Of a stretch of 64,000 bases of DNA, positions 50,073 to 64,000 are shown in pieces. The stretch lies in assembly GCA_050250895.1 (NCBI GenBank), contig JBFWNU010000001.1, positions 2,788,891-2,852,890 on the forward strand. The letters are read 5' to 3'. Source of the stretch: Vulcanimicrobiota bacterium (GTDB lineage: Bacteria; Vulcanimicrobiota; Xenobia; Xenobiales; JADMJV01). Under the pieces are notes generated by a model, which saw only the letters and a list, made by a program, of their open reading frames with translations, was not told where the DNA came from and made no database searches. The position numbers were made by a program, and so were the translations under genes. Position 1 is the stretch's first letter; each line of letters begins with the position of its first letter.

Positions 50073-52460
50073 CTATCGGAACGAGCGCTGGCGGCTAGCG
50101 GTCCTGCGCTTGGCCTCATCGAGCCAAGCGTTTACGGAAGCGGGCCACAGCTTGATTTTCGTTTCTCCGTCATCACCGCCGGTGGGGTCCGGACAATAGG
50201 CTACCAGGCAGCCTTTGGCAAACCCGATGACGGGCTCGAAGCCATAGTAATGCCATTCCAATTGAGCCAGAGGACGGCCTTCTGAGGTCAGCAACTCCAT
50301 GTTCAGGTCGCAGCCACCAAAACTTTGGATGCCGGCGCTCCTCGTGACAGCAAGCACTCGACGACCATCCTCAGAGCATCTGAACGCTCCTTCAGCGAGC
50401 CCATCTCGCCCGTCGGTTTGCGTCTTGGCCACCGCAATTTGGAACAAGGGCCCAAACGGACGACCATCGCGAGCTACCACCTGCCAACTCCGCGCCACGG
50501 GCTCGACCCGGAAATTCGTCATCGGCTTGAGCCCTTTCTCCCAGGTGAGGTTCTCCAGCGGCGGCCCAGAAAGCGGTTGACACGAATCGAGATCCCAGAC
50601 TTCAGCCTGACCTTCCCTGGTCGAGAAAATCTGGAGGTAACGACCGTCGGCCGAGAAACGGGGTCGCCTTTTTGATTCCAATTCAACCCCGCCGACAAAG
50701 TCACGGACACCTACCTTGTAAGCAAAGCCATCGCGACTCCCGACAAATGCCATCGAGTCAGCGGCAACACCGTCCACCGCCAAAATCTCCACTCGCGAGA
50801 GCAACCATTCGTGGATCCGGGGTTCTCGGTAAGACGGGCCCTCGTACCAGACCAGATGGCCGTCGTCGCTGCCAAAGAGCGGGCCCGGGCTGCTGCATAT
50901 ATCGTAGCAACCCCAATTGCCCACAGGCCGCGATGTCTTTTCAATCCATCCGTCATCGCCCTTCCGGAAGCACCTTACGGTAGCCCCCCTCATGGGATAC
51001 AACCAGGAACTCCTTGCGAGCCATAGCTCGTCCCCGAGGGCCTCCAGAGCCTGAATGGGTGTCCCTGCGTAGCTAAACTCCTCCTGCTTGTGCCAGACCT
51101 TCCCGCCAACTTCCGCCATGAACACCTCCCCCATGTGATTGCCTGCCCACCACTGGTTGCCAACGCTGGCAATGGCGGTGACCGCCTCTCCACGGGAAAG
51201 CTCGGTCGAGACTGTGGGCTCGAGCCTCCCACCGCTCCAGTAGTGGACCTCTACGTGCCCATCGGCGAGTCCTACAGCGACCGTTTCTCCCTGAGCCGCG
51301 ATGGCCGTGACTGGTGAGTTGAGAGACAGCACTTCCTTCCAGGTCGTGCCGTCCTTCCCCACGAAGACCTTGCCATTGGCGGCCCCCATCAGCACAGTCC
51401 CATCCGCCCATGCGAAACGACACGACCGAAATTCGACCGCCTGTAGCGGTTTCTCTTCACGAAGTTCAAGTTCCAGGACCACCTTGGGGGTCGAGTGGCC
51501 GGCATTATCCCATCGCCACACCCTCCCGTCCTGACAGCCCATCAGGACAAAGTCTCCCTTGGGACTACACGAGACCGAACAGACCGGACTCTGAAGGTTG
51601 TATTTTTCTTCGACAGGAGCCGCCTGGAGGGCTTCGACAAGTGAGGCTTTTGTTGCTTGGTACTCGGCTGGAAACAGACGTTCCATCCCCGGACGTTGAA
51701 ATTCTTCGGTGAGGGTAACGGCCAGCTTTAGCCCCTGACTGGGATCCACCTTCAATGATTGACTTATCGCCAACAACTGCCCTCGAAGTCGCGAAACATA
51801 GGAGCCGTGAGCGAAGAACAGCGCGACCCCTAGAAGCGAAGTAAAGATTGTCAATAGGGCGGTCCCCGCAACCCACCGGGTGCGCTTGTGCTCTCGAACG
51901 TCTTCGCTGACCAGTTCCTTGAGTTCCATTCCACGGATTGGAGCAGAGAGGCGGGCCGCCGCCTGCAAGAACTCTGGGTTTCTAAGACTCAACGTACCGG
52001 GGCTAGACCTCGCCCAGCCGAGATCCACCCACAAAGGCTCCTCCTGGTAAGCCTTCCGCAGAGCCGCTGGTAATGCGTCGGTCAATCCCCAATCGAAGTC
52101 TTGGTCGCCCCACGCGAAGGTGCCGTCCGAGCGGACGAGCAGCAAATTTTCAACCCTGCCCATATCTTGAACCCAATACTTGACCTCTTCGCCGACCCAC
52201 TTCGAGGCAGCCGAGGTCGGGCAACCCAAAAGAATCAGGTATCGGCTGGACTCAAGGGCTGCCTGAATCGACTTCCACGCGCCCGGTGTTGCGGCCAAAT
52301 CCGTCTCGTCACGAAAGATCCGAACACTACGCAGCCGATACCAGGGTTTTGCAAGACCCTCGAGGGCTTTCTGCAGGTGGATGGCCAATAAGCGATCGGC
52401 GGCGTGGCTGTAAGAAATAAACGCGTCGAAACGTTCTATGGAAGAGCTCGATTTACTCAT
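50073..52460 (-). CDS. TIR-transmembrane-WD40/beta-propeller protein
   Basis: FDAFISYSH, IFRDETDL, SKWVGEEV. TM WVAGTALLTIFTSLLGVALFF. Repeats such as GCQDGRVWRWD. Confidence 0.85.
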   Translation of the reverse strand: MSKSSSSIERFDAFISYSHAADRLLAIHLQKALEGLAKPWYRLRSVRIFRDETDLAATPGAWKSIQAALESSRYLILLGCPTSAASKWVGEEVKYWVQDMGRVENLLLVRSDGTFAWGDQDFDWGLTDALPAALRKAYQEEPLWVDLGWARSSPGTLSLRNPEFLQAAARLSAPIRGMELKELVSEDVREHKRTRWVAGTALLTIFTSLLGVALFFAHGSYVSRLRGQLLAISQSLKVDPSQGLKLAVTLTEEFQRPGMERLFPAEYQATKASLVEALQAAPVEEKYNLQSPVCSVSCSPKGDFVLMGCQDGRVWRWDNAGHSTPKVVLELELREEKPLQAVEFRSCRFAWADGTVLMGAANGKVFVGKDGTTWKEVLSLNSPVTAIAAQGETVAVGLADGHVEVHYWSGGRLEPTVSTELSRGEAVTAIASVGNQWWAGNHMGEVFMAEVGGKVWHKQEEFSYAGTPIQALEALGDELWLARSSWLYPMRGATVRCFRKGDDGWIEKTSRPVGNWGCYDICSSPGPLFGSDDGHLVWYEGPSYREPRIHEWLLSRVEILAVDGVAADSMAFVGSRDGFAYKVGVRDFVGGVELESKRRPRFSADGRYLQIFSTREGQAEVWDLDSCQPLSGPPLENLTWEKGLKPMTNFRVEPVARSWQVVARDGRPFGPLFQIAVAKTQTDGRDGLAEGAFRCSEDGRRVLAVTRSAGIQSFGGCDLNMELLTSEGRPLAQLEWHYYGFEPVIGFAKGCLVAYCPDPTGGDDGETKIKLWPASVNAWLDEAKRRTASRQRSFR

Positions 52461-52470
52461 TGCAAAAGGC

Positions 52471-54570
52471 CTACTTTCTGGCCAAGTCAAAGGGCGGGCT
52501 AGTAATCACATCGAAGCCGACCCCCGCCTGCAGGGCCAGGTTGTGGCTGGGCTTGTTCACCAGCAGGGCTCGGAGACCAGTGAAGCGGACTCTTCCATCC
52601 GGAAGCAGCGAAACGTCGACAGAGTTGACCCGATCCCTGAGCGGTTGGGTTAAGTGAACCATGCCGAGGCTAACCGAGGGCTCCAGGTCGAAAACGTCCT
52701 CATCGCCAACGACCACGACCTGGTTGTTGGCCGCCTCACCGCGCTCAACAATGGCAAGGCTGAACTTGCCTTCACCGTGAACCAACCCCAGTCGTGGCTC
52801 TTTCAACGCTAGAGGTTGGTAGTGATAGACCAGGATGTGGCGCAGGTCCCTTCCGTCCGTCCCATCGTTGTTCTTATCCAACCTTATTCGCTCCTGGTCC
52901 TCTGGCCGAACCTGGAGGAGGACGATTCCTGATGGGTCCACTCGAGCGTCCAACTCCAGTAGTTCAAACTCGTGCTTGTGTTCCAGCTCAAACAACCATT
53001 TGAAGAGCCTGAGGCCGGTCGATACCAATCCCAGTGCGCCGATGCCAGCGGGGCCAAGCAGTCCGGCCACCAATCCTGGTAAAGCCGACCGGGCGCCTTC
53101 CGCTATGAACTGCGGGAGCCTCCCTCTCTTGAGTTCGGCGTGGAGTCTTATCAACTCGCCAGTGAGTTCCAGCGGAGTCTTGCCGTCAAAGTTTGCGCCC
53201 AATTGCTGCAGGGCCAACTGACCCAAACCTCGCCCCAAATCGAGCGGCGCCACCCCAGCCGTCGCGGCCGTCACACCGCTGACCACCTCGAGGAGTCGGC
53301 GAAGGGTTTGGCGGTTGTGGAACTCACTGACGGTGCCCTCACCCGCCCTGAGCAACTTGCCGGCACTCTTGTCTTCCAAAGGGATGAGGAAGAGAGAAAA
53401 CGCAACCCCACCGAAAGTTGGCTTTCTGAGAGTCGGCCCATCATTGTGCACTACTCGCAGGAAAAAATTGCTATTCTCGAAGAAGTCCTGTTTCTTCTTG
53501 CCGGGGTCGAACATGGTCACTACGAATGTCCAGTCGCGGCCCTGATCCGAATCGAAGACCGAAGGCAGACCGAGGGCCTCGAGACCCTGACCTGATAAAT
53601 CAACTGAGAACTCATAGTTCGCGGACAAGAGTCGCGGCATCAAAGGCAGCGGGTTTGCTCTGCCCCCGTGATGCAAGTTTAGCCTCAGCGGATAAACCGT
53701 CGGAACGGGCCCGACGGGCCTGGTTTCGTCCCCTCCATCGTCGAACAGTTGGCGGCCGAGACTCGTGAGTTCCACGATTTCCGCTAGAGGAAGGAGCGGA
53801 TCGATGGAACCTTGCCGGACGCCACGAACGAACCCGCTGTCTTTGAGAGCATTTACGGCCGACATGACATCGTGAGAACGGTCGGCTACGGTCATTGCGC
53901 CCAGAGCCAGGTCTTGGACTAGCCGGAGACGTTCACGCGCCTCCGCCTGGGCATCCGCTAGAACGATGTTGAGCAAATCTAGTCCACGTCTCGTCAAGTT
54001 CTGGACCTCAGCCTCCATTTCGGAGGTGAGGTTGACAAATCCGGCACGAGCAAGCCGCAAAAGACTGTTCTTGACGTCGATTTCCAGCTTACCCGTTCGG
54101 CCCAAGAGCAGGTCTGCCAGAACTACAAGGTCCCGGAGTTGCAAGTCTTGCGTAACGGAGGTAAATGCCTCTGGCAACAGGCTGGACGGGATGCTCGAAA
54201 GGGCCGCGACGAGCAGTTGTTGGAGCTCATCGATGGCGAAGAGTTGGAGCTCGTCCAAGTCTGGCAGTTCCACTACGGGGTCGTCTAGGGCAACAGGAAG
54301 CAGCGTGGCCAGACCCTCGCGGCGCCGGGACAACGCAAGTTCCCAAAGAGGCTTGAACCAGTCTCCTTGTACGTCCGTCAGGCCATCGCTCAAAAGCGGG
54401 ACGAGTATGGCGCAGCCTCGGACCAAGTCCACCGCATCCAACAGAGGCGGTGAAACCACGCTCACTACCGCAAAAGGAATCAGCGCTTTGAATTGCTCTT
54501 CGAGTGAAAGGACAACGTCTATGGCAGCATCGCTAGCCAGTATGCCAACCTTTAACAAATGAACCCCCAT
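52471..54570 (-). CDS. Hypothetical multidomain protein (degenerate TIR-like N-terminus, two winged-helix-like segments, hydrophobic hairpin)
   Basis: AILVPLLS...ELAL.RR....LLPVAL. LARAGFV...LTRRG and LKDSGFV...LTSLG. Confidence 0.6.
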   Translation of the reverse strand: MGVHLLKVGILASDAAIDVVLSLEEQFKALIPFAVVSVVSPPLLDAVDLVRGCAILVPLLSDGLTDVQGDWFKPLWELALSRRREGLATLLPVALDDPVVELPDLDELQLFAIDELQQLLVAALSSIPSSLLPEAFTSVTQDLQLRDLVVLADLLLGRTGKLEIDVKNSLLRLARAGFVNLTSEMEAEVQNLTRRGLDLLNIVLADAQAEARERLRLVQDLALGAMTVADRSHDVMSAVNALKDSGFVRGVRQGSIDPLLPLAEIVELTSLGRQLFDDGGDETRPVGPVPTVYPLRLNLHHGGRANPLPLMPRLLSANYEFSVDLSGQGLEALGLPSVFDSDQGRDWTFVVTMFDPGKKKQDFFENSNFFLRVVHNDGPTLRKPTFGGVAFSLFLIPLEDKSAGKLLRAGEGTVSEFHNRQTLRRLLEVVSGVTAATAGVAPLDLGRGLGQLALQQLGANFDGKTPLELTGELIRLHAELKRGRLPQFIAEGARSALPGLVAGLLGPAGIGALGLVSTGLRLFKWLFELEHKHEFELLELDARVDPSGIVLLQVRPEDQERIRLDKNNDGTDGRDLRHILVYHYQPLALKEPRLGLVHGEGKFSLAIVERGEAANNQVVVVGDEDVFDLEPSVSLGMVHLTQPLRDRVNSVDVSLLPDGRVRFTGLRALLVNKPSHNLALQAGVGFDVITSPPFDLARK

Positions 54571-54766: not shown

Positions 54767-54806
54767 TCTCTCAGGAGCGCTCTCTCTCAGGAGCGCTCTC
54801 TCTCAG
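54767..54806. repeat. 16-bp tandem direct repeat in a divergent intergenic region
   Basis: TCTCTCAGGAGCGCTC x2 plus a partial copy. Confidence 0.7.
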
Positions 54807-54908: not shown

Positions 54909-56423
54909 ATGGGTCGTGAGCGCGAAGAATATATTACCTTCTTAAGCTACGCTTGGAATGATGACCGGGACTGGACGACCCATTTCGGCAATCTACTTGA
55001 AAGTATCCTTCAACAGTTCTCTGGTCAAAAGATGATGAAGATCTTTCGTGACCTAAAGTTGCGTTCGGATAAGATTCTATCGGAGGGGATACGGGAGGCT
55101 CTTGATTGTTCATCAAGCCTTACGTGCGTGATGTCCCCATCTTATCTCAAGTCCCAGTGGTGTCAAAATGAATTAAGCTATTTTCAGGAGTATCATCCGA
55201 CCCGCCCAATATTCCTCGTGACAGCAATTCCTGTGGAGGGCATCGATGGCCGTCTTCACCATCCTTTTTGGAACTATGTCCAGGAGCGAGGCCGATACAA
55301 GAGAATCAAGCCGACGGACGACGAGTTTCACGAGATTGTGGAGTACTTGGGGCAGGATATCCTAGAAGCCCTCGGTTTGTTCGAACCCCCCGGCGGCGCG
55401 CCGAAGTCCCACACCGCCGTGTCCCTCCTGGCGGAAGAGGATCGGACCAGATTGGCCTCTGGGCCACTGCCTACTGCATCGGAGAAGGGGATGCACCTTG
55501 AGGTCGCCGGACCCCATGACCTTCAACAGGTTGTTCTCTACAACTTCAACAGGAAAGCCCAAGCCTATTTTCGGTCGTTGCTTGCGCCCGCGCCAATGCA
55601 GTCACAGAACGCGCTGGAACTTCTTCGTATGATAGAGAAGTATTGCGAGGATGAAGTATTGGCCTACGGGTCTAGGTGGCTTGACGTAGGCTGTGGAACG
55701 GGTCTCGTGCTAGCGTTGATGCGAGACTGCCAAACAGCCCCTCCTCTCAACGATATCGTCACCCTCGGGTTAGACTATTCTTCTGAAATGATCAGGCTGT
55801 CAAAAGAGGTCGCTGCATACAATGATGTAGTCCAACTTGACGTCGTGGAGATGGACGCCGAGAAGTTGGGTCAACCGTTCGATTGCGTGGTGGCGAACAA
55901 CGTATTCCATTGGCTCTTGGATCTGGAAAAGATTCGGCGGGCCATGAAGAACTGTGCCTCGTGCCTGAGGCACGGCGGGATCTTGGCGGCCAGTATCGCG
56001 GGCCGTGGAACGGGGAAAGCCTTCTTCCAGGTATACCGGGAGACGATGGCCGAACTTCTTGACGGGGCAACGATGGCGAACTGGAAGTCACACATCGACA
56101 ATCCCATCGGGCTTCAAGCTTTGAGTGAAATCGTGGATCTCGCCCTTCCCAACGACTTCACTGTTGTTGAAGCTCGTCTAAGATATGAGCCTGTAGTCTA
56201 CAAAAACCCTGAAATGTATGTTGAGGCAGCTCGGGCCTACGGGGAATTTGTCTTCACTGCGCCATTTCTGGGACTGAACGGGGACGCCCTGGTTGATCAG
56301 TTCTGGCGTCGTCTCAAAGAGAAGTTTCGGCAACTCTGGGAGCAGTCACCTGCCGCAGAGCGGTTAGGTGGTAGATACCTACACGATCAGTACATGATCT
56401 ACGTTCTATATCGAAAGAGATGA
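54909..56423 (+). CDS. TIR domain fused to class I SAM-dependent methyltransferase
   Basis: FLSYA, IFRD, MSPSYLKSQWCQNEL. WLDVGCGTG, GLDYSSEMI, FDCVVANNVFHW. Confidence 0.88.
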   Translation: MGREREEYITFLSYAWNDDRDWTTHFGNLLESILQQFSGQKMMKIFRDLKLRSDKILSEGIREALDCSSSLTCVMSPSYLKSQWCQNELSYFQEYHPTRPIFLVTAIPVEGIDGRLHHPFWNYVQERGRYKRIKPTDDEFHEIVEYLGQDILEALGLFEPPGGAPKSHTAVSLLAEEDRTRLASGPLPTASEKGMHLEVAGPHDLQQVVLYNFNRKAQAYFRSLLAPAPMQSQNALELLRMIEKYCEDEVLAYGSRWLDVGCGTGLVLALMRDCQTAPPLNDIVTLGLDYSSEMIRLSKEVAAYNDVVQLDVVEMDAEKLGQPFDCVVANNVFHWLLDLEKIRRAMKNCASCLRHGGILAASIAGRGTGKAFFQVYRETMAELLDGATMANWKSHIDNPIGLQALSEIVDLALPNDFTVVEARLRYEPVVYKNPEMYVEAARAYGEFVFTAPFLGLNGDALVDQFWRRLKEKFRQLWEQSPAAERLGGRYLHDQYMIYVLYRKR

Positions 56424-56519
56424 CGAAGGTTGGCTGAACGCGGGAGCCGAGACAGACGCCACGAGGTCTACATAACCGTCTCGCGATGACATTCAAGCTC
56501 TAAGAGAGAACCAAGCTTC

Positions 56520-57746
56520 ATGCACACAGCTCAAGACCTGGACCAACTCCCAGGAATCCTTCTCGCTCAGCCCTGCATTCGGGATGGCCTCAACGAGCCA
56601 TACTCTCCCAATCACACTTCTGGGCAGACAACCACCCAGCACGTTGCCACGCAGATGGAAATGCTCACCAGGCTCCGACACGGAGACTATGCGGCGTTGC
56701 AGGCGATGGTGGCGAACCCCAACGGCGCCTTAACCGTGTCCGCGGAGGAGTTGAAGGATGTTCTCGCGCCTATGGCTGAGCAATTTGGCTCCTCAGAGTG
56801 GATGGTCCTCACGCTTGTCGTAGCCTATCACGACCTGGGCAAGATGGAGGCTGCTTGGGCCAACGAGCACGGTCTTGACACCACTGGGGTAGAGTGGTTG
56901 GCTCACGACTATGACAGTAAAGGCCTGCTGGTGGCCAATCCCGGACTCTTGACTCCCTACTCGCTCGACGAAAAGGAGCGAGAAGCCGTTCTGGAGCTTT
57001 GTCGTCTCCATTCGGTCCCCGGCCAGTTCTTTTTCGGAGAAGGCAGTTTGGCCGCCTACGAGGGGCTGCGGCATCAGCACCCTTTCGGGATGACGATGGG
57101 GCGGACTCACGGTTTGCTCGACGTGATGTCGGCTCTAAATCATGGGTTCGTCAGACCGATCCTGGAATCGCACCGCGACCTAGGAGAGCTCGTGGCCAAG
57201 GCTCAGTCTTCAGGAAGGCCTCTGGACGATGTCTTTCGAGATGCCTCGGAAGAACAGTTCGAGAAGGAAGTCGATAGCGGGGCGCCCGTGGGTGCTGTTA
57301 GTTGGCGGCGCCTTCGTCGTCTGCTCGGCAAGAGATTTTCTCCCGAGAATCTCAATGAGGCGTTGACTGCCGTCCCTGCAGAGTTTGTTACTCTGTTCGA
57401 CCTGGTGTCTGATGGCGACCATACCTGGTATGGCACCTACATCGCCAACGCCTTCGGCAGCGGTCTGTTGGCCGCTTTGGATGGGACGTCCGAGGCGGCC
57501 GGAGCGGTCGGGCTGCTGGTCAAGGCAATCGCTTGTGCGGGTCGACGAATGGAACATCGGAAGGAGTGGACCGTGAGTGCGCTAGAGCCGTCGCTTCAGG
57601 TGAAGGAAGGACGAGATGGCGCTCTGGCAGTCCTGCGAAGTCTGGCTCCAGCCGAGACCCTGGAACAAGCCTATCAGCTTCTAGATGCTGGGCCCCTGCG
57701 CTATAAAGTGGGCGATTCGGGAGTGGAGTTTTCGTGGCAGGCGTGA
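56520..57746 (+). CDS. HD-superfamily phosphohydrolase-like protein
   Basis: QHV...AYHDLGK...AHD...RLHS...LLDVMS spacing is typical of the HD fold. Confidence 0.7.
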   Translation: MHTAQDLDQLPGILLAQPCIRDGLNEPYSPNHTSGQTTTQHVATQMEMLTRLRHGDYAALQAMVANPNGALTVSAEELKDVLAPMAEQFGSSEWMVLTLVVAYHDLGKMEAAWANEHGLDTTGVEWLAHDYDSKGLLVANPGLLTPYSLDEKEREAVLELCRLHSVPGQFFFGEGSLAAYEGLRHQHPFGMTMGRTHGLLDVMSALNHGFVRPILESHRDLGELVAKAQSSGRPLDDVFRDASEEQFEKEVDSGAPVGAVSWRRLRRLLGKRFSPENLNEALTAVPAEFVTLFDLVSDGDHTWYGTYIANAFGSGLLAALDGTSEAAGAVGLLVKAIACAGRRMEHRKEWTVSALEPSLQVKEGRDGALAVLRSLAPAETLEQAYQLLDAGPLRYKVGDSGVEFSWQA

Positions 57747-57873
57747 ATTACGCTTCTTCTCTCTGGACGTCGCCAACAGGCCCGGTGACGATAGCTTGTC
57801 TGCAGACCGATTGCACTCACTGAAGGATCCCGATGTAATGCAACGAAGCGGGTCGTCACTATGAGGGGGTCGA

Positions 57874-58455
57874 GTGGTAACTTTCACCAAACGCAGCTTT
57901 CGGTTGAATCTAAGTTTTGCTCAATTCGGGGGTGAGATCGACCAGGAGGATCGCCAGTGCGCCTGGGAGTTCTACTGTGAACTCACGACTCGGGTTGGTG
58001 TCCGGGGTAGATTGGACGGATCGGGCAGCGATGTCTTCACCGGCGAGATTTTGGTTGAAAGTCTCGAGTCGCTATGTACGTTCTTCCAGACGTCCCGCAT
58101 CATTATGAAGAAATACCCGGTTGGACGGGTTGCCGCCGGGGAGGCCAACCTTGGATTTGCCATTGCTCAGTTGCTCGAGTTCGTCGTCCGGCCATTCCTC
58201 GAGAAGTGGCAAGCGACCTATCGGTACTGGTGGACTGTTCATCAGGACGGCCGCAGAAACCCATTCGCCCTACAAGCAGAGTTCCCCAAGTTCGAAGAGT
58301 TGACGAAAGACTGGGTCGCCGTCCGCAAGTTTTGCCGGTCCGCTGCGCACGAACTGGCCAAAGCCTATCATCTCATCGACCTGCTGGACCTGGCACCCGA
58401 CGAGGCCCGTCAGCAACAGGTGAACGAGACGGCCGCTGTTTGCAGGCTGATTTAG
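57874..58455 (+). CDS. Helical hypothetical protein
   Basis: AWEFYCELTTRV, SL.TFF...R.IMKKYP, VVRPFLEKWQ. First gene of the TIR-SLOG operon. Confidence 0.75.
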   Translation: MVTFTKRSFRLNLSFAQFGGEIDQEDRQCAWEFYCELTTRVGVRGRLDGSGSDVFTGEILVESLESLCTFFQTSRIIMKKYPVGRVAAGEANLGFAIAQLLEFVVRPFLEKWQATYRYWWTVHQDGRRNPFALQAEFPKFEELTKDWVAVRKFCRSAAHELAKAYHLIDLLDLAPDEARQQQVNETAAVCRLI

Positions 58456-58466
58456 CGGAGGACTAT

Positions 58467-59744
58467 TTGCTTAAGACGACAGTAGATACTAGGGCACCGT
58501 TTTGCCTCTATGTGGTCTGGCACCCTGAATGCACCGATGGGAAATACCTGGCCCGCCAAGTCTTTGATTGGTTTCACGCCCCGAGCGGCGAACTCCATCG
58601 GTCGGGCTTGGGAATTCCGGTATATTACCGCACTTCCAAGCAGGGGCCACCGCGTCCGCTAGAGGCGGACGAGGCCCAGCACAACGTCGTAGTCGCTCTT
58701 GTGGATCACAATCTGGTCGCGGACGCGGGTTGGCGTGGCTTCCTCGCGGGGTGTCGCCACAAGAATACGACGATCTTTCCGGTCCCGCTTCATCGCTCAG
58801 CCTATCAGCTAAGTTCCGTCAACGCTCTCAACTTTCTTCGCGTGGACGGTCGAAAAGATGGAGAAGAAGACCCTCAGCAACGACAGGAACGCCGTGGTCA
58901 ACGATTGCGCCGGCAACTGACCGAAGTCTGTGCCCGGTTGCTTCAGAAGTCGCTGCACGGAAAGACCGACGAAACCAGAGCTAATCTCGAGACGATTCTT
59001 GAGAAGATACAAGACGAGGTGGATTGCCTCGAGTTGCGCAAGTACCTCGCACCGGTCTTCCGTGACGAAGCGGGGGAACCCGTCACCATCTTTCTCAGCC
59101 ATGCCAAGGCTGATGGCACCGATGTCACCGAGAAGTTGCGAATGCATGTCCAGACCTACGGCCAGTTGCGCTCTTTCTACGATGAGAGTGACCTGCCTAT
59201 CGGCTACCAGTTCGGGAACAAGTTGGAGGAGGCCGTGAAAGAAGGTGGCGCTATGATTTCAGTGGTGACCGATGCCTATGCCAGCCGACCTTGGTGCCGG
59301 GCTGAGTTGGCTTGGGCGCGGCGTCCACGACTGGAGGAGGGTAGCCTAAGTCATTGGAAGGTGACGCCCACCCTGGTTGTGACAGCAATGAGCGGTGGCC
59401 TGACCAGGACCATACCCGAAATAGGGAATCTTCCTTCCATCCACTGGGTGCCAGGACGCGAACAGTACATATTGGATTTGCTCCTTCTGGAGGTGCTGCT
59501 GGCAAGTTATCATCGCCTGAACGCGCAGAGCATTGTTCATCGTTCCGGGCGCCATGTAATTAGCTGGGTGCCCGACCCGATCTCGGTCATGGAACTGGCC
59601 GCGACCTGCCGCGCTGAAGGGCTTGAGCTAAACGAACTGGTTTACCCGGGTCACGGTATCTCGGCGGCCGAACGGGAGGCCATCAAGCGCATCGTGCCAG
59701 GAACGCTCACTTTGAGGACCTATGAGGAGGCCTGGCAAGAATGA
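58467..59744 (+). CDS. TIR-domain protein (extra N-terminal TIR-like domain plus catalytic-type TIR)
   Basis: GGAGGA RBS before TTG 58467. IFLSHAKADG, FYDESDL, AYASRPWCRAEL. Confidence 0.87.
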   Translation: MLKTTVDTRAPFCLYVVWHPECTDGKYLARQVFDWFHAPSGELHRSGLGIPVYYRTSKQGPPRPLEADEAQHNVVVALVDHNLVADAGWRGFLAGCRHKNTTIFPVPLHRSAYQLSSVNALNFLRVDGRKDGEEDPQQRQERRGQRLRRQLTEVCARLLQKSLHGKTDETRANLETILEKIQDEVDCLELRKYLAPVFRDEAGEPVTIFLSHAKADGTDVTEKLRMHVQTYGQLRSFYDESDLPIGYQFGNKLEEAVKEGGAMISVVTDAYASRPWCRAELAWARRPRLEEGSLSHWKVTPTLVVTAMSGGLTRTIPEIGNLPSIHWVPGREQYILDLLLLEVLLASYHRLNAQSIVHRSGRHVISWVPDPISVMELAATCRAEGLELNELVYPGHGISAAEREAIKRIVPGTLTLRTYEEAWQE

Positions 59745-60712
59745 GCAGGAAGCTTGTCGCTCTCTCGTTCGGCGATAGCCCTGACCTGGCGGAATTGGGC
59801 TATGATGCCGAGCATCTCGATGTGGTCGCCATGCGCATCGCCAGGTTTCTCTTGCGTCGTGGTTATGACATCGCATACGGCGGGGTCTTCCGTTCTCAAA
59901 GCTTTCTAGACACATTGCTCGAACTTGTTCGTGCCGAGACGGCCCATCAGCAGGAAGAGGCGCAGGCCGAGGGACGGCAGTGGTCTGAATCTGAGCCACG
60001 ACTATTTAGCTATCAGGCCTGGCCCTATTATGATGCTATCACCACAGAAGTCATAGCCGATACTCTCGGTTTCATTCGCTACGTCAAGGTCCATCCCGTC
60101 GACGGAGAAGGCATCGACCATCGCACTCGGGCCCGTCACTTTTTGGATCCCCCAGACGGCAACATTCCCAAAGGCGCGGCTTTGATGGCAGCGGCGCTCA
60201 CCCGGATGCGCAGGGCCATGACCGCGCCAGCAGTTGACATCGACGGGGGTGACGTCTCCGCCCCCAGCGCCCGCATTGTGCTAGGCGGAGCCGTCGAGAA
60301 TTGGGCCGGAATTTTGCCCGGCATAGCAGAAGAGATTCTCTGGACTGCCCGAGCCGGGCAACCCGTCTACATCTTGGGGGCTTTCGGAGGCTCAGCAAAG
60401 GTTGTCGCAGACTATCTGCGCGACGGTGAGAATTTACCCAAAGTCCTGACCCTTGAGCATCATCGCTCCAACGCCAAAATGGCCAGGGTCATCGAGGGTT
60501 TCCCCGCCATCGGCTTCGAGGCTGTTTATCCCGAAGAGGGGTTCCGGGAACTCCAAAGGTTTCTCGCGGAAGCATGCGGGAACTTTAGCCTGCTCAATCC
60601 GCTCGGTGAAGAGAACCGCGAGCTAATGACAAGTCACAATGTCATCAATATCCTTCGTATACTCAAAACTCAGTTTCCCGATCTTCGGGGGCAGCACTCG
60701 ACCCCCAGTTGA
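59741..60712 (+). CDS. SLOG-superfamily protein (LD_cluster2-like)
   Basis: ALSFGDSPDL..LG....HL, IAYGG, ALTRMRRAM, ARIVLGG, PGIAEE, PVYILGAFGGSA. ATGA overlap with the TIR gene. Confidence 0.82.
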   Translation: MSRKLVALSFGDSPDLAELGYDAEHLDVVAMRIARFLLRRGYDIAYGGVFRSQSFLDTLLELVRAETAHQQEEAQAEGRQWSESEPRLFSYQAWPYYDAITTEVIADTLGFIRYVKVHPVDGEGIDHRTRARHFLDPPDGNIPKGAALMAAALTRMRRAMTAPAVDIDGGDVSAPSARIVLGGAVENWAGILPGIAEEILWTARAGQPVYILGAFGGSAKVVADYLRDGENLPKVLTLEHHRSNAKMARVIEGFPAIGFEAVYPEEGFRELQRFLAEACGNFSLLNPLGEENRELMTSHNVINILRILKTQFPDLRGQHSTPS

Positions 60713-60757: not shown

Positions 60758-63700
60758 TCATCTTGCGGCGCCCCGAATCCAACCGACGACAGCGTTATTG
60801 AGCTTGACCAGTCTGATGACGACCGGGTCTTGAGCAGAGAATTTTCGCCTGCGAACCTTGATGCAGAACTCCAGCAATTCCAGCAGAGAACGGAACTGGA
60901 AGGGGGAACTTCCACGTTGCCAGGACGCCTCAAATCCGGCCAGGACGCGACCTAGCTCTTCTTCTGGTGCTCCGTCGCAGACCCAGCGCATGAAGAGTCG
61001 GCGAGCCGCCTTCATGTGCTCGAAGAACGTGGATCCACTTGCCTCTAGCGCGGGAAGAACCAATTCGGGCGCAGCCGCGGGCCAAGCCTGACACATCCTG
61101 GCCAGGAAGAGATAGTCCAGCAGATAATCATCGTCGCGGGCCAATTCAACAGCCGCCTGATAGCCGGCTCGCATCTCCTCGAGAAGGGCGTCACTGGTCT
61201 TATCGCCTGCTTCGCGCAGCATCGCCAACATCGCCCCTCCACCAATGCGAGAATGCGCCTTGGCATTGGGACAGATCGCAACCATGCCCTTTCTGTCGTC
61301 CAAGATTTCTTGAATGCTGCGAGGCGTCGGTTCGCTCTGCTCTGCTCTAAACCAGAGAAGCATCTCAAGGCGCAGCAAAATGGACAAATCGTCCATAGTG
61401 ATCAACGACGACTCTTTAGCCTTGTGGAACAGGTCAAAGGCCGAGACGAGAGCACTGTCGGCCGGTAGGGCTGCTTGCCCGATTTCGCTCAAGCCAAATA
61501 GTGGATGGATTAATTGGCTGTAGGCTCTTGCCAGGGCAAGCAAGACATCGGGCCTGCCAGAGCCCCGTTCCTCGCCCAGCCAGGTCGGTTTGGCCGCACG
61601 ACGAAGCGACTCGAGTTCCTTGAGAAGACCCGAATAGTCGTCCAGTTGGCAAACCTCGGCTCGTTGGCTGAGATTTTCGAGGTCACGGACAAATTCTCGG
61701 GGGCTGACGTAAGGATCGGTCTCTCTGGACTGCGCGTATCCAGGATCCGAGGACCACCGGTACTCAGGATCGCCGTAACACTGGTAGGCGCCCCAGGAAT
61801 TGAACTGGCTGTACTCGTTCCAGGTGGCTTGACGGGCGTGCAAAACGGCTCGGCCGAAAGTCTCCCCTTTGCTCATCTCTTGGTAGAAAGTGCGGGCGAA
61901 TAGCTCGGCGGAGTTGTCCTCCACGGCCCAACCGGCCGCGATAACCGCACGAGCGCCCGCGCGGATTATCGCCGTCGCCAGATTGGCCGCCAACTCGTTT
62001 GACCTTTGCTCATAGCGTTCAATTCGGCCCAGGTGGCAGCAGTTGATAAATACCAACTCAGGACAGGGGTTGAGTTGTGATACCGTGGCCGGGGTCAACA
62101 GCATGTCAGGGCCGATCACCATGCCCGCTTCGGGCTTCTCGCCAGAATTGTCGTACACGCCGTGACCCGCCAGATGCAGCACTCGATAGGGACGAGACAG
62201 CAGTGCGGTACCCACCGTCACTCCGTCAGGCCGCGGAAGGTGCGTTACCTGGAACTTGCCCGCCGACAAGGTCTGTGCGACCGCGCGGGCTTCGTCTTGC
62301 GCGGCCTTTAGCTCGGCGAGCTTGCTGACGGGATCTCCGACAACGAGCGCAGTGAAGAGGTCGGTAGGGCGTGCTTGATCGCGAAACTCTGAGCTGGCAA
62401 GTTGGCGAATCATTTCGGACCGAACCGATACTGGACGTGAATCTCGGTCCTCACCGCCATCGACCAATAGCTCCCAGGGAAATCGCGCCGCAGCTTCGTC
62501 TAGCAGCAAGATGACCTTTTCTTCGGAATCGCCCACTTCTTTCAGGCGATATGGCATCAATAGTTGGTAAAGTGCCCGAGAGAGGTCCGGGTTCCACTGC
62601 GGAACTGTCGAGGCCTGCCGCAGCATGCCGTCTACAAGTTGGCGATCATAGGGAAGCGGCATCACTTCGCTGCGGGCGAGACTGGTAAGGAGCGTGTGAC
62701 GCAGCTGGCCTGTCTCTTCCTCTGTGATTTGCAGGCGCTGCCACTTCGACATCCCGCGCTGAAAACTGGCTCGTGACAAACGTCCAGAGACCGTCCGGAC
62801 CTCACCAGAGAACTCGAACATGCCACCCAGCTTCTCGCCCTGGCAGAGCTGGCGAGCAACGTGAGCGGCAGCGATGGCGCGGTCCTCGTAGAGTTCGATG
62901 AACTCGATATGCCTCAGGTCGTCGCTGGCCCCCGCAGAAGCCAACACCTGCTTCGCCTCCAGGACACCATTAAGAATGCAACTGATGCTCCCTTCCAACC
63001 CGATTCCGCCCTCCATCGAACCAATGGCCACGAAGGAAAGTCCGCCACCAACGGTCGTTGCTCGACCCTCTAGCAGAAACTCCACCACGGCCTGGCGGAC
63101 GGTTTTTACTAACTGGGTTTGCTTGAGTGCGCCAAACTGGCCGAGGCCAATCAAGATGCCACCTTTGAAGGCTCCGGTACCGTCTGGGTCTGGCAGCAGA
63201 TAACGTCGGGATGATTCCAGCCGCCATGGGTATACTCCGCAGGCTCGTTCCAGGGATAGATGACCCCCTAACTTGTAATCGAGCGCCCGCTCCGAGCCTT
63301 CAATGGGTTGCTTGTGGTAACAGCCCAGCGCGACGGGAAAAGCGGCATAACCGAGATCGCCGTGCGTGACGCCGACGCGAACACGGGTGTCCGGTTGTTG
63401 GTCGAGGGGTGCCACATCCTGAGCCCCGAGCACGGCCGCCTCGAGTTCGCGTTGGGTAAGGAAGGTCAGGGGGACATCGTCGTATTCCAACTCGGGTCCA
63501 GAGCGAAGTCGACGGGCTGGAGGCTGGGTAGGCTCGACGCCACGGCCTTGGGTCCAGCCATCATTTAAGAGCTGGAGATAGCCCTCGAAAGCAGGTCGGT
63601 GGGAAGGTAGATTGCCGTGCGAAGCTTCAGCATAGAACATCGGCACGCCAGGCAGTTTTCCGCGAGCCCAGGGCACCGTACCGTCGCCCTCCGCCGTCAC

Positions 63701-64000
63701 CTGGAAATCAATTGTGGGACCGAACAGGAAACGGTCTCTGATGTACCAACCCACGGGAGTGTTGGAGCCCACTCCAGCAACGTAGACCATCCTCTCGGGA
63801 TCCACCCCGGCTTCGAGCTCCTTCCAAGCATTGGCGACGGCGTTTAAACGGGTCGCCGTGATACGTTTGAATTTGCAGCCAAATTCCTGGTCTAGTTGGT
63901 CGAAGAAGCCGCTCCAACCATTGGCTGACCAGACGCCGAGGGATTGATGGGTGTCGTAAGGCAATAGCTGGATCACGCCATCAAAGGAGTGAATAACACG
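60758..64000 (-). CDS. Lipase/LCAT-like hydrolase-(macro-like)-CHAT caspase-family protease-helical domain protein, 5'-truncated
   Basis: Frame is open to the window edge. GDGTVP...SHGNL. VGVTHGDL. CHAT dyad LHLAGHG and FINCCH, AAGWAVED, WGAYQCYGDP. Confidence 0.88.
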   Translation of the reverse strand, partial: RVIHSFDGVIQLLPYDTHQSLGVWSANGWSGFFDQLDQEFGCKFKRITATRLNAVANAWKELEAGVDPERMVYVAGVGSNTPVGWYIRDRFLFGPTIDFQVTAEGDGTVPWARGKLPGVPMFYAEASHGNLPSHRPAFEGYLQLLNDGWTQGRGVEPTQPPARRLRSGPELEYDDVPLTFLTQRELEAAVLGAQDVAPLDQQPDTRVRVGVTHGDLGYAAFPVALGCYHKQPIEGSERALDYKLGGHLSLERACGVYPWRLESSRRYLLPDPDGTGAFKGGILIGLGQFGALKQTQLVKTVRQAVVEFLLEGRATTVGGGLSFVAIGSMEGGIGLEGSISCILNGVLEAKQVLASAGASDDLRHIEFIELYEDRAIAAAHVARQLCQGEKLGGMFEFSGEVRTVSGRLSRASFQRGMSKWQRLQITEEETGQLRHTLLTSLARSEVMPLPYDRQLVDGMLRQASTVPQWNPDLSRALYQLLMPYRLKEVGDSEEKVILLLDEAAARFPWELLVDGGEDRDSRPVSVRSEMIRQLASSEFRDQARPTDLFTALVVGDPVSKLAELKAAQDEARAVAQTLSAGKFQVTHLPRPDGVTVGTALLSRPYRVLHLAGHGVYDNSGEKPEAGMVIGPDMLLTPATVSQLNPCPELVFINCCHLGRIERYEQRSNELAANLATAIIRAGARAVIAAGWAVEDNSAELFARTFYQEMSKGETFGRAVLHARQATWNEYSQFNSWGAYQCYGDPEYRWSSDPGYAQSRETDPYVSPREFVRDLENLSQRAEVCQLDDYSGLLKELESLRRAAKPTWLGEERGSGRPDVLLALARAYSQLIHPLFGLSEIGQAALPADSALVSAFDLFHKAKESSLITMDDLSILLRLEMLLWFRAEQSEPTPRSIQEILDDRKGMVAICPNAKAHSRIGGGAMLAMLREAGDKTSDALLEEMRAGYQAAVELARDDDYLLDYLFLARMCQAWPAAAPELVLPALEASGSTFFEHMKAARRLFMRWVCDGAPEEELGRVLAGFEASWQRGSSPFQFRSLLELLEFCIKVRRRKFSAQDPVVIRLVKLNNAVVGWIRGAAR

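Follow-up and report, generated by a model that had tools for sequence, protein, structure and literature searches.

Our analysis of the window, the whole 64,000-nucleotide stretch of DNA to which the lines above belong, supports a reading whereby a gene for a fusion of a TIR domain with a methyltransferase (TIR-MTase) and the HD-domain gene downstream of it are independent modules stacked in an acquired island of conflict genes, rather than a dedicated two-gene system; we put the probability of this reading at about 60%. The earlier note had joined the two genes into one module and had named a lack of co-occurrence of their homologues elsewhere among the outcomes that would speak against it. 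Examined from the HD side, no such co-occurrence was found, and this part of the proposal is not supported. Eight independent loci with an HD homologue all lack a TIR or MTase neighbour, neither domain was found by Pfam among 33 neighbour proteins in the HD loci, and a BLASTP comparison of the ORFs of at least 70 aa from ten loci with the island matched the HD gene alone, plus a CHAT gene in the metagenome contig L005. A TIR-MTase homologue is present in none of the four HD-holding genomes, a search in which the L005 contig was not taken as a whole, and G001, a genome of the same genus, has the HD gene and lacks the MTase. Of 401 genomes of the phylum, that of the window itself (G000) among them, one has the MTase half and three have the HD gene. 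This negative pairing result removes a tempting two-gene system and shifts the focus to the TIR-MTase alone and to a possible link between the HD and CHAT proteins.

Table 1 Features of the TIR-MTase region, in coordinates of the window
Feature	Position	Strand	Details and basis
Divergent operon: 699-aa protein of no family, then 805-aa TIR + beta-propeller (WD40-like) protein	50073..54570	-	ORFs, Pfam
16-nt tandem direct repeat	54767..54802	.	two full copies and the start of a third; repeat search
TIR-MTase fusion gene	54909..56423	+	504 aa; intact ORF, Pfam TIR_2 and Methyltransf_12/11/25 above cutoffs
TIR domain of TIR-MTase	54909..55250	+	about residues 1-112; alignment of homologues and RUN1 TIR
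BioC/Tam-like class I SAM-dependent small-molecule methyltransferase with cap domain	55458..56423	+	residues 184-504; AF2 model, Foldseek, VIA
HD protein gene	56520..57746	+	408 aa, intact ORF
HD-superfamily phosphohydrolase domain	56520..57209	+	residues 1-230; alignment, model, VIA, weak Pfam in relatives, hhalign
C-terminal helical and small beta domain of HD protein	57210..57746	+	residues 231-408, family-specific; model secondary structure
193-aa ORF, no family	57874..58455	+	11 nt upstream of TIR gene; Pfam/PADLOC/NCBIfam
TIR-like + TIR protein	58467..59744	+	425 aa; TIR_2 E 3e-12; first gene of conserved TIR+SLOG pair
SLOG cluster-2 protein	59741..60712	+	323 aa; PF18163 E 3.7e-40; overlaps TIR gene stop by 4 nt
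DUF7379-lipase-CHAT protein	60758..64000	-	C-terminal 1080 aa of about 1825 aa; CHAT E 4.2e-35; continues past window

The TIR-MTase ORF is identical to the database gene call (P0020, 504 aa), and seven cluster representatives share its architecture, the window protein counted in and the other six being P0021, P0026, P0027 and P0031-P0033. In the TIR half, residues 11-98 match the Pfam model TIR_2 with 37.4 bits (cutoff 28, E 4.1e-9), and the second model of the pair PF13676/PF01582, TIR, scores 27.4 against a gathering score of 21.3. Residues S13, Y14, D18, D48, Y79, C85, E88 and G111 are invariant in the alignment of all seven homologues. E88, which lies within the motif WCQNEL, falls on the column of the catalytic Glu of the RUN1 TIR, the position that is Ala in the mutant PDB entry 7s2z, and the assignment in the earlier note of a TIR domain with a catalytic-type WCxxE is thereby borne out. 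An insertion of about 47 aa that follows the TIR domain is confined to the window protein in this alignment. The 16-nt direct repeat about 110 nt upstream of the start is a possible operator. On plasmids, tblastn gave no match to the TIR-MTase, and an alignment-based pattern scan of viral contigs found no relatives.

Evidence for the MTase half comes from both sequence and a predicted structure. Residues 258-359 match Methyltransf_12 with 63.7 bits (cutoff 30, E 2.8e-17), and the motifs LDVGCGTG (SAM motif I) and NNVFHW are unchanged across the seven homologues, including the motif I residues D259, G261, G263 and G265 by which a class I MTase is recognized. The AF2 model of this half (pLDDT 92.6) retrieves 3ccf in Foldseek (E 5.8e-16), and with VIA it matches TmtA (Z 21.9, 260 aligned residues, rmsd 3.7), 3ccf (Z 21.5) and Tam (Z 20.9); its best full-length structural matches are small-molecule MTases only, JHAMT and BioC also among them. 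The motifs and the model together agree with the small-molecule, Tam-like MTase that had been proposed. Scores for individual NCBIfam families fall short of membership: BioC (TIGR02072) reaches 64.4 bits against an equivalog cutoff of 184.95, and the two Tam models reach 26.2 against 297 (NF002463) and 23.8 against 320 (NF010703). BioC is also the best model for all eight free-standing relatives scanned, at 85-103 bits and likewise under 184.95.

Most members of this MTase family are free-standing proteins of about 285 aa, and its homologues carry generic methyltransferase names in the database sources. Among 12 of the closest representatives, 11 of which exceed 350 aa, six combine TIR_2 with the MTase, two carry a sigma-54 AAA+ domain with it, and four have unassigned N-terminal extensions. 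The MTase-half residues Q48, D76, G78, G80, D106, N147, H151, W152 and Y307 are invariant across 52 family members. Because the family-specific pocket residues are alike in TIR-fused, sigma-54-AAA+-fused and free-standing MTases, the MTase half is most likely catalytically active, and its substrate would not be one peculiar to the products of TIR domains.

By sequence, the HD protein is divergent. Neither Pfam nor NCBIfam matches it at E <= 0.01, and Pfam HD (PF01966) gives no match to it even at E <= 5; among its relatives, Pfam HD is found weakly in 6 of 18 (best E 3e-4) and Cas3_HD weakly in 11 of 18 (best E 0.0058). The motif HDLGK (H104, D105) is present, and H41, H104-D105, H129-D130, D132, H164, D201 and H218 are invariant in all 18 homologues, so that the metal-binding H...HD...D residues of the superfamily (H41, H104-D105, D201) are all in place. 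With the model (pLDDT 88.3), VIA gave 50 rows over residues 1-230, most of them HD-fold proteins (Z 6.7-9.7), including GppA/PPX (Z 8.3-9.7), SAMHD1 (8.3-8.4) and YhaM (8.4), together with PDEs, PgpH, HD-GYP, Cas3-HD and small alarmone hydrolases. The top row, 3wfo_A, has Z 14, a value that helical models may reach by chance. Foldseek gave a best E of 0.021, with no PDB match at E <= 0.001, and hhalign paired HDLGK with HDIGK in an HD-GYP protein at a low probability of 10%. The nearest Atlas cluster is annotated as 'putative HD domain-containing protein' (score 0.95). We conclude with moderate confidence, from the model and its matches, that residues 1-230 adopt a divergent HD-superfamily fold, and the call of an HD-type hydrolase in the earlier note therefore stands.

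Residues 231-408 are scarcely covered by the rows of the fold searches. The family is marked by an extra conserved AHDxDS motif and by this C-terminal domain of about 180 aa, and some homologues are extended at the N terminus by about 100 aa of low complexity. Weak Atlas leads pointed to DUF6829 (scores 0.93 and 0.80); this domain is absent from Pfam scans of the 18 members at E <= 5, and we keep it as a lead only. A search of longer sequences found no fused forms at 924-2635 aa, which is weak evidence; tblastn gave no match to the HD gene on plasmids, and no relatives were found on viral contigs by an alignment-based pattern scan. The family ranges over bacteria and DPANN archaea.

The two genes lie within a region of low GC3, with values of 0.60-0.68 for genes at 45-64 kb against 0.80-0.86 for the PEPCK, T2SSF, FIST and kinase genes. 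The island holds at least four TIR genes, the fourth of them outside the window, and the best reading is that it was acquired horizontally, with conflict genes stacked in it. In the divergent operon upstream of the TIR-MTase, the 699-aa and 805-aa genes overlap by 20 nt. Downstream, the co-directional TIR-SLOG operon that had been described earlier is confirmed as a 425-aa TIR gene, whose start is better set at the TTG at 58467, which is preceded by GGAGG, and an overlapping SLOG cluster-2 gene. A homologous TIR+SLOG pair is adjacent in the genomes G357 and G117, around which no homologue of the TIR-MTase, the HD protein, the 193-aa ORF or the CHAT protein was found. Pfam finds no recognised effector domain on the SLOG protein, and no PADLOC model matched it.

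Of the neighbours of the HD gene, only the CHAT gene, whose product carries DUF7379 and LCAT in its N-terminal part (in L020), is found beside it again at another locus. In L005, a CHAT protein with 40% identity to that of the window over 1096 columns adjoins the closest HD homologue (46% identity), with neither TIR nor SLOG alongside and with no homologue of the 193-aa ORF found downstream of the HD gene. Otherwise, this CHAT protein was found in 1 of 61 relatives, which is G000 itself, and in none of the four HD-holding genomes. As the sole recurrent neighbour, the CHAT protein is more likely than the TIR-MTase to be a partner of the HD protein, if a partner exists, and a functional link between the two is possible from these two loci.

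PADLOC and NCBIfam scans of eight island proteins found no characterised system, in agreement with the earlier remark that no characterised defence system with this architecture is known. Matches to mad2, ThsB, Cas3b and PDC-S66 were weak or partial, and these memberships were rejected. For MADS, the mad2 match is confined to the MTase core (positions 266-401 of the 492 in the profile; 57 bits), and no other mad model matched any of the eight proteins. For Thoeris (ThsA + ThsB), the PADLOC ThsB matches have E 0.0027-0.0074 with a best score of 15 bits, the ThsA models matched none of the eight, and the NCBIfam model ThcB4 on the neighbouring TIR protein scores 21.4 bits against a cutoff of 220.

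How the TIR-MTase and HD genes relate to each other and to their neighbours can be read in other ways. If they were one module, the TIR would make an NAD+-derived product, the MTase would methylate it or sense SAM, and the HD protein would be the effector or the eraser. Their arrangement is consistent with such a module, as they are co-directional and separated by a 96-nt spacer with no terminator-like site, although terminator and promoter counts in the region are not above those of shuffled sequence; in this genome they may be co-transcribed, and the active-site residues of both enzymes are intact. Moreover, in the archaeal lineage L003/L010 an HD homologue is followed, 2 nt on, by a nucleoside 2-deoxyribosyltransferase-like gene. 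This fold (DRHyd) is evolutionary kin of TIR and SLOG according to PMC7159879, making some functional tie between the HD family and TIR-fold enzymes possible. The missing TIR and MTase neighbours at the eight HD loci and the missing TIR-MTase in the four HD-holding genomes nevertheless speak against a shared module, as do the pocket residues common to TIR-less free-standing and AAA+-fused MTases, which argue against a substrate specific to the TIR product, and the slight GC3 gap between the genes (0.60 versus 0.65). We consider a single TIR-MTase and HD module quite unlikely, although, as the co-occurrence counts were taken from the HD side, a pairing confined to a particular lineage is possible.

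A wider system is also conceivable, in which the TIR-MTase would be an extra ThsB-like sensor feeding the TIR+SLOG pair, with the HD protein, the CHAT protein or both acting downstream or as erasers. In Thoeris, ThsA senses its ligand through a SLOG domain, and more than one TIR gene may be present at a locus; in the window, five co-directional genes span 54909-60712, the SLOG gene among them, and HD and CHAT are linked in L005. The pieces nonetheless occur separately, since the TIR+SLOG pairs of G357 and G117 and the HD and CHAT genes of L005 are each found without the others, no effector domain is recognised on the SLOG protein, and all Thoeris models score under cutoff, so that such an extended system appears unlikely. 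At the other extreme, the fusion might have nothing to do with immunity, the MTase being metabolic or regulatory, the TIR a mere oligomerisation or adaptor domain, and the placement in the island incidental. That most of the MTase family is free-standing, that some members are fused to sigma-54-type AAA+ regulators, and that the homologues bear generic names would fit this idea, whereas the catalytic-type Glu and the other TIR core residues invariant in all seven fusions, the setting of the gene in an island of low GC3 that also holds CHAT and WD40 genes and three or more further TIR genes, and the rare, patchy distribution (1 of 401 phylum genomes) make it very unlikely. We therefore favor the stacking of independent modules.

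TIR enzymes are central to the immunity of bacteria, plants and animals. To our knowledge, every newly characterised TIR architecture has so far led to a new NAD+-derived signal or effector logic. In the TIR-MTase, the TIR half, with its catalytic Glu kept, would cleave NAD+, resulting in depletion or in an ADP-ribose-derived signal, while the MTase half would provide a second output or serve as a ligand-binding module that controls the TIR. The HD protein would be a divergent metal-dependent phosphohydrolase acting on a nucleotide-like phosphoester, and we infer, in addition, a role in defence. It is tempting to speculate, though improbable on present grounds, that the TIR-MTase represents a new class of single-polypeptide immune enzyme in which the cleavage of NAD+ by the TIR is coupled with the methylation of some small molecule from SAM. 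Its product might then be a methylated ADP-ribose-derived messenger; alternatively, the enzyme might methylate the released nicotinamide or a carboxylate metabolite and so block NAD+ salvage or lipid synthesis, and reading or erasing the signal might fall to the adjoining HD hydrolase and CHAT protease. Such SAM-plus-NAD+ chemistry, to which the recurrent fusion of an intact TIR with an intact small-molecule MTase points, is undescribed for TIRs in the papers searched, and it is testable with one purified protein. Two small uncharacterised families are defined here, one of BioC-like MTases with TIR or AAA+ fusions and one of divergent HD proteins.

Like Thoeris ThsB-type and other bacterial defence TIRs, the TIR-MTase has an N-terminal TIR with a conserved catalytic-type Glu and a variable domain fused C-terminally, and its gene lies in a TIR-rich island next to a SLOG-domain gene. 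Unlike in Thoeris, it carries a complete SAM methyltransferase at its C terminus, and ThsA (SIR2-SLOG or Macro) is missing. The island also resembles the nucleotide-centric TIR/DRHyd/SLOG conflict systems that Burroughs et al. 2015 predicted, as presented in the main text of PMC7159879, in that, in a bacterium with a large genome, a TIR gene adjoins a SLOG gene and CHAT and WD40-type genes are close by. That main text contains neither 'methyltransferase' nor 'methylase', although the supplementary architecture tables of this or similar surveys could list the fusion, and none of 'methyltransferase', 'methylase' and 'methylat' is found in the main text of PMC9503650. A search of the literature, mostly at the level of titles and abstract openings, likewise found no description of a TIR-methyltransferase fusion, which apparently is a rare, recurrent and undescribed architecture. 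The HD protein shares, over residues 1-230 of its model, an all-helical fold and the H...HD...H...H...D pattern with the C-terminal domain of PPX/GppA, SAMHD1/dGTPases, YhaM, PgpH/HD-GYP and small alarmone hydrolases, yet it has no significant Pfam or NCBIfam match and Foldseek E values of at least 0.02, and its AHDxDS motif and large C-terminal domain set its family apart from these phosphohydrolases. Finally, the MTase half has the class I Rossmann fold and cap in common with BioC/Tam, the fungal thiol MTases TmtA/GtmA and JHAMT (structural matches at Z 19.4-21.9). BioC is its best match among sequence models, albeit far below the equivalog cutoff, and, unlike BioC and Tam, the family of the window MTase has its own conserved NNVFHW, NPIGLQ, YEP and HDQ motifs and also occurs in fusions with TIR or sigma-54 AAA+ domains.

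Our results favor a model whereby the TIR-methyltransferase fusion (TIR-MTase) and the HD protein encoded downstream of it are independent modules stacked in one island, a reading to which we assign a probability of about 0.6. The gene arrangement described in the earlier note is borne out by the ORF list: the two ORFs are intact, co-directional, separated by a 96-nt spacer, and positioned exactly as tabulated here, and the TIR-SLOG operon placed further downstream is also present. Composition breaks sharply at ~45 kb, with GC3 of ~0.80-0.86 upstream (genes for PEPCK, T2SSF, FIST, and a Ser/Thr kinase) and 0.60-0.68 from there to the window end; the TIR-MTase gene, at 0.60, is the lowest of the island genes. 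A subtilase gene and a metallo-beta-lactamase-fold gene lie at the island's left end, and the 40-64 kb region holds no tRNA genes. Past the window, the island continues with peptidoglycan hydrolases (CHAP-GH108, chitinase-M15, NlpC/P60) and then a ThsB-type TIR gene, which brings the TIR-bearing genes of this low-GC island to at least four. Two repeats within the 340-bp divergent intergenic region 5' of TIR-MTase are possible operator sites. The plasmid and viral collections searched contained no relatives of TIR-MTase or of the HD gene.

Features of the island and its genome flank (L020, the flank beyond the window end)
Feature	Position	Strand	Details
TIR-MTase gene	54909-56423	+	intact ORF, 504 aa from ATG; database gene call P0020 gives the same 504 aa
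HD gene	56520-57746	+	intact ORF, 408 aa
ORF without family	downstream of HD gene, before TIR-like+TIR gene		193 aa
TIR-like+TIR gene	start placed at TTG 58467		425 aa; start preceded by GGAGG
SLOG cluster-2 gene			overlaps TIR-like+TIR gene by 4 nt; PF18163, E 3.7e-40
CHAT gene	60758-64000, running off the window; N-terminal part L020:1-3123	-	~1825 aa including genome flank
Divergent operon	50073-54570	-	699-aa protein without detectable family, then 805-aa TIR + WD40-like beta-propeller protein; genes overlap by 20 nt
Tandem direct repeat, 16 nt	54767-54802		two full copies and a partial third; upstream of TIR-MTase
Inverted repeat, 12 nt, 3-nt loop	54833-54859		upstream of TIR-MTase
ThsB-type TIR gene	L020:11553-12323		256 aa; ~11.5 kb past window end, after the peptidoglycan hydrolases

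Seen from the HD side, the TIR-MTase and HD genes do not belong together. Pattern scans recovered the HD family at four loci in species-representative genomes and eight in metagenomes, and merging of evident duplicates (L003=L010, L004=L009=L012, L005=L006) left eight independent loci, of which six retain ~10 kb of sequence to one or both sides. Among 33 proteins encoded near HD genes, Pfam detected neither a TIR nor a methyltransferase, and when all stop-to-stop ORFs of at least 70 aa from 10 loci were compared with the island by BLASTP, the HD gene was the sole match except at L005. None of the four HD-holding genomes, two of them 97-98% complete, has a TIR-MTase match at E <= 1e-5. Across 401 phylum genomes sampled, the MTase half occurs in one, the window's own, and the HD family in three, again counting that genome; a same-genus genome lacks the MTase but carries an HD gene (44% identity) whose neighbours encode a Crp regulator and a GAF-HD-GYP protein. 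The proposal of the earlier note that the two proteins form one signalling or defence module, which called for their homologues to co-occur in other genomes, is therefore unsupported from the HD side, and we regard it as improbable. An extended Thoeris-like cluster is likewise unlikely: G357 and G117, two further genomes of this phylum, carry adjacent homologues of the TIR-like+TIR and SLOG cluster-2 genes (L025:6912-9349; L026:7177-9197; 23-25% identity over 430 columns for TIR-like+TIR and 29-30% for SLOG), but the genes around them include no homologue of the 193-aa ORF or of anything else in the island. The TIR+SLOG pair of the window (58467-60712) is thus a separable module. A role outside immunity is, in our judgment, the most remote of the alternatives to independent, stacked modules.

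The HD gene may have a different partner. Of the HD homologues with context, the one at L005 is the closest (46% identity), and a divergently oriented gene 170 bp from it encodes a 1833-aa DUF7379-lipase-CHAT protein (L005:4329-9830). The giant CHAT protein of the window, assembled from window and genome flank, has the same order of DUF7379, LCAT-like lipase, and CHAT; the L005 protein is 40% identical to its window part over 1096 columns and 42% identical to its N-terminal part beyond the window. Because two rare genes adjoin in two distant genomes in different orientations, these data suggest an HD-CHAT link (n=2). Among 61 relatives, this CHAT protein was found only in the window's own genome (E <= 1e-20), none of the four HD-holding genomes has it, and the long-form HD homologues lack a CHAT neighbour; some HD homologues bear a low-complexity N-terminal extension of ~100 aa. 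Other neighbours at HD loci are of many kinds (an NB-ARC-TPR protein; Crp and HD-GYP; PilZ and a purine/cytosine permease; MetRS; an ORF6N protein). At L003/L010, the HD stop is followed 2 nt downstream by a nucleoside 2-deoxyribosyltransferase-like gene, which hints that the HD family acts on nucleotide-type substrates; TIR and SLOG are described as evolutionary relatives of the deoxyribonucleotide hydrolase (DRHyd) fold (PMC7159879).

Both halves of TIR-MTase have intact catalytic or cofactor motifs that are conserved across the fusion family. Pfam matches TIR_2 at residues 11-98 (37.4 bits; cutoff 28) and Methyltransf_12/11/25/23/31 at residues 248-365 (up to 63.7 bits). Plant RUN1 TIR aligns to the TIR half (E 5.9e-6) with 'WCQNEL' on 'WCLDEL', and the E88 column is exactly where the PDB row of the RUN1 Glu-to-Ala mutant differs, in keeping with the catalytic-type WCxxE read from the sequence in the earlier note. 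In a seven-member TIR-MTase alignment, S13, Y14, D18, D48, Y79, C85, E88, and G111 of the TIR and D259, G261, G263, G265, 'ANNVFHW', 'NPIGLQ', 'YEP', and 'HDQ' of the MTase are invariant, and a ~47-aa insertion after the TIR core is private to the window protein, whose TIR half is too divergent from that of its relative P0021 for BLASTP alignment. The MTase half is modeled confidently (AlphaFold, pLDDT 92.6, pTM 0.90), and the top structural matches, effectively tied, are all cap-domain methyltransferases of the small-molecule kind: Anabaena 3ccf (Foldseek E 5.8e-16), TmtA (Z 21.9, 260 aligned residues, rmsd 3.7), 4VPMT2, Tam (Z 20.9), JHAMT, BioC, and SAMT. The earlier description of the MTase as small-molecule-type and Tam-like was correct. 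BioC is the best named sequence family for TIR-MTase (64.4 bits; cutoff 184.95) and for all eight free-standing relatives scanned (85-103 bits); the BioC score always falls under the cutoff, and membership in BioC or Tam was rejected.

Exhaustive HMMER comparison of TIR-MTase with 1.84 billion cluster representatives gave 737 matches at E <= 0.001, 69 at <= 1e-10, and 16 at <= 1e-30, query included, and all strong matches were to the MTase half. Pfam scans of 12 matches (the 11 top matches >350 aa plus P0021) found TIR_2+MTase in six (P0021, P0026, P0027, P0031, P0032, P0033), a sigma-54-interaction-type AAA+ fused to the same BioC-like MTase in two (P0028, P0029; 905-931 aa), and an N-terminal extension without Pfam match in four; ~40 more among the matches listed are free-standing proteins of ~285 aa. 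The MTase-half residues Q48, D76, G78, G80, D106, N147, H151, W152, and Y307 do not vary across an alignment of 52 family members drawn from every architecture. In P0028 and P0029 the MTase replaces the usual DNA-binding domain beside the AAA+ domain, suggesting that it is a regulated output domain.

The HD protein is accepted as an HD-superfamily member with an intact metal-ligand set, and membership in any named HD family is not. Neither Pfam nor NCBIfam matched it, and PADLOC gave no meaningful match. A word-seeded search yielded 19 homologous proteins (18 plus the window's own; 35-49% identity), all unnamed or 'hypothetical'. Members of the HD family also turn up in DPANN-type archaeal MAGs (L003:9857-11715, L010; records titled Woesearchaeota). 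Invariant are H41, H104-D105 (HDLGK), H129-D130-x-D132, H164 (LHSxPGQxFFGEG), D201, and H218. The 408-aa reading is right, because the public 324-aa gene call P0001, which spans 79% of the query, would lose N-terminal sequence that all homologues conserve, and with it H41, the first His of the metal-ligand set. Per-member Pfam scans (E <= 5) matched Cas3_HD in 11/18 members and HD in 6/18 (best E 3e-4), and hhalign aligned HDLGK, with low probability, to HDIGK in an HD-GYP protein. The confident model (pLDDT 88.3, pTM 0.87) drew no Foldseek match at E <= 0.001; the weak rows were phosphodiesterases, SAMHD1, and a CCA-adding enzyme. In an exhaustive VIA structure search of 48,161 chains, residues 1-230 matched HD-fold proteins (3wfo_A, Z 14.0, 183 aligned residues; GppA/PPX, 8.3-9.7; SAMHD1, 8.3-8.4; also YhaM, PhnZ/TmpB, PgpH, HD-GYP, Cas3-HD, YqeK, and small alarmone hydrolases), values of Z that helical models can reach by chance. 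Residues 231-408 carry no assignment. The nearest ESM-Atlas cluster is a 'putative HD domain-containing protein' (score 0.95); ESM-Atlas features also point weakly to eukaryotic (fungal, haptophyte) DUF6829 (0.93 for the whole protein, 0.80 for residues 228-408), which HMMER did not confirm.

We suggest that the TIR domain cleaves NAD+ and that the MTase, probably a small-molecule enzyme of the carboxyl-O type, is active. Its substrate is presumably not a TIR-specific product because the invariant residues recur in relatives that stand alone or are fused to AAA+; the MTase pocket is common to TIR fusions and non-TIR relatives. In the fusion, the MTase could serve as a second output or as a ligand-binding regulator. 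The HD protein would hydrolyse a nucleotide-like phosphoester; any partner it has is more likely the CHAT giant.

Full-text searches turned up no paper describing a TIR-methyltransferase fusion, and supplementary architecture tables may yet list one. The terms 'methyltransferase' and 'methylase' are absent from the main text of PMC7159879, as are these and 'methylat' from that of PMC9503650. A single paper among those searched, on the Kongming dITP system, combines 'Thoeris', 'TIR', and 'SAM-dependent methyltransferase', and its relevant passages bring up an MTase solely as something occasionally encoded beside KomBC (bioRxiv 10.1101/2024.12.20.629578). Among TIR conflict proteins, the TIR-MTase fusion is an uncharacterised variant, both rare and recurrent, that merits direct biochemical test.
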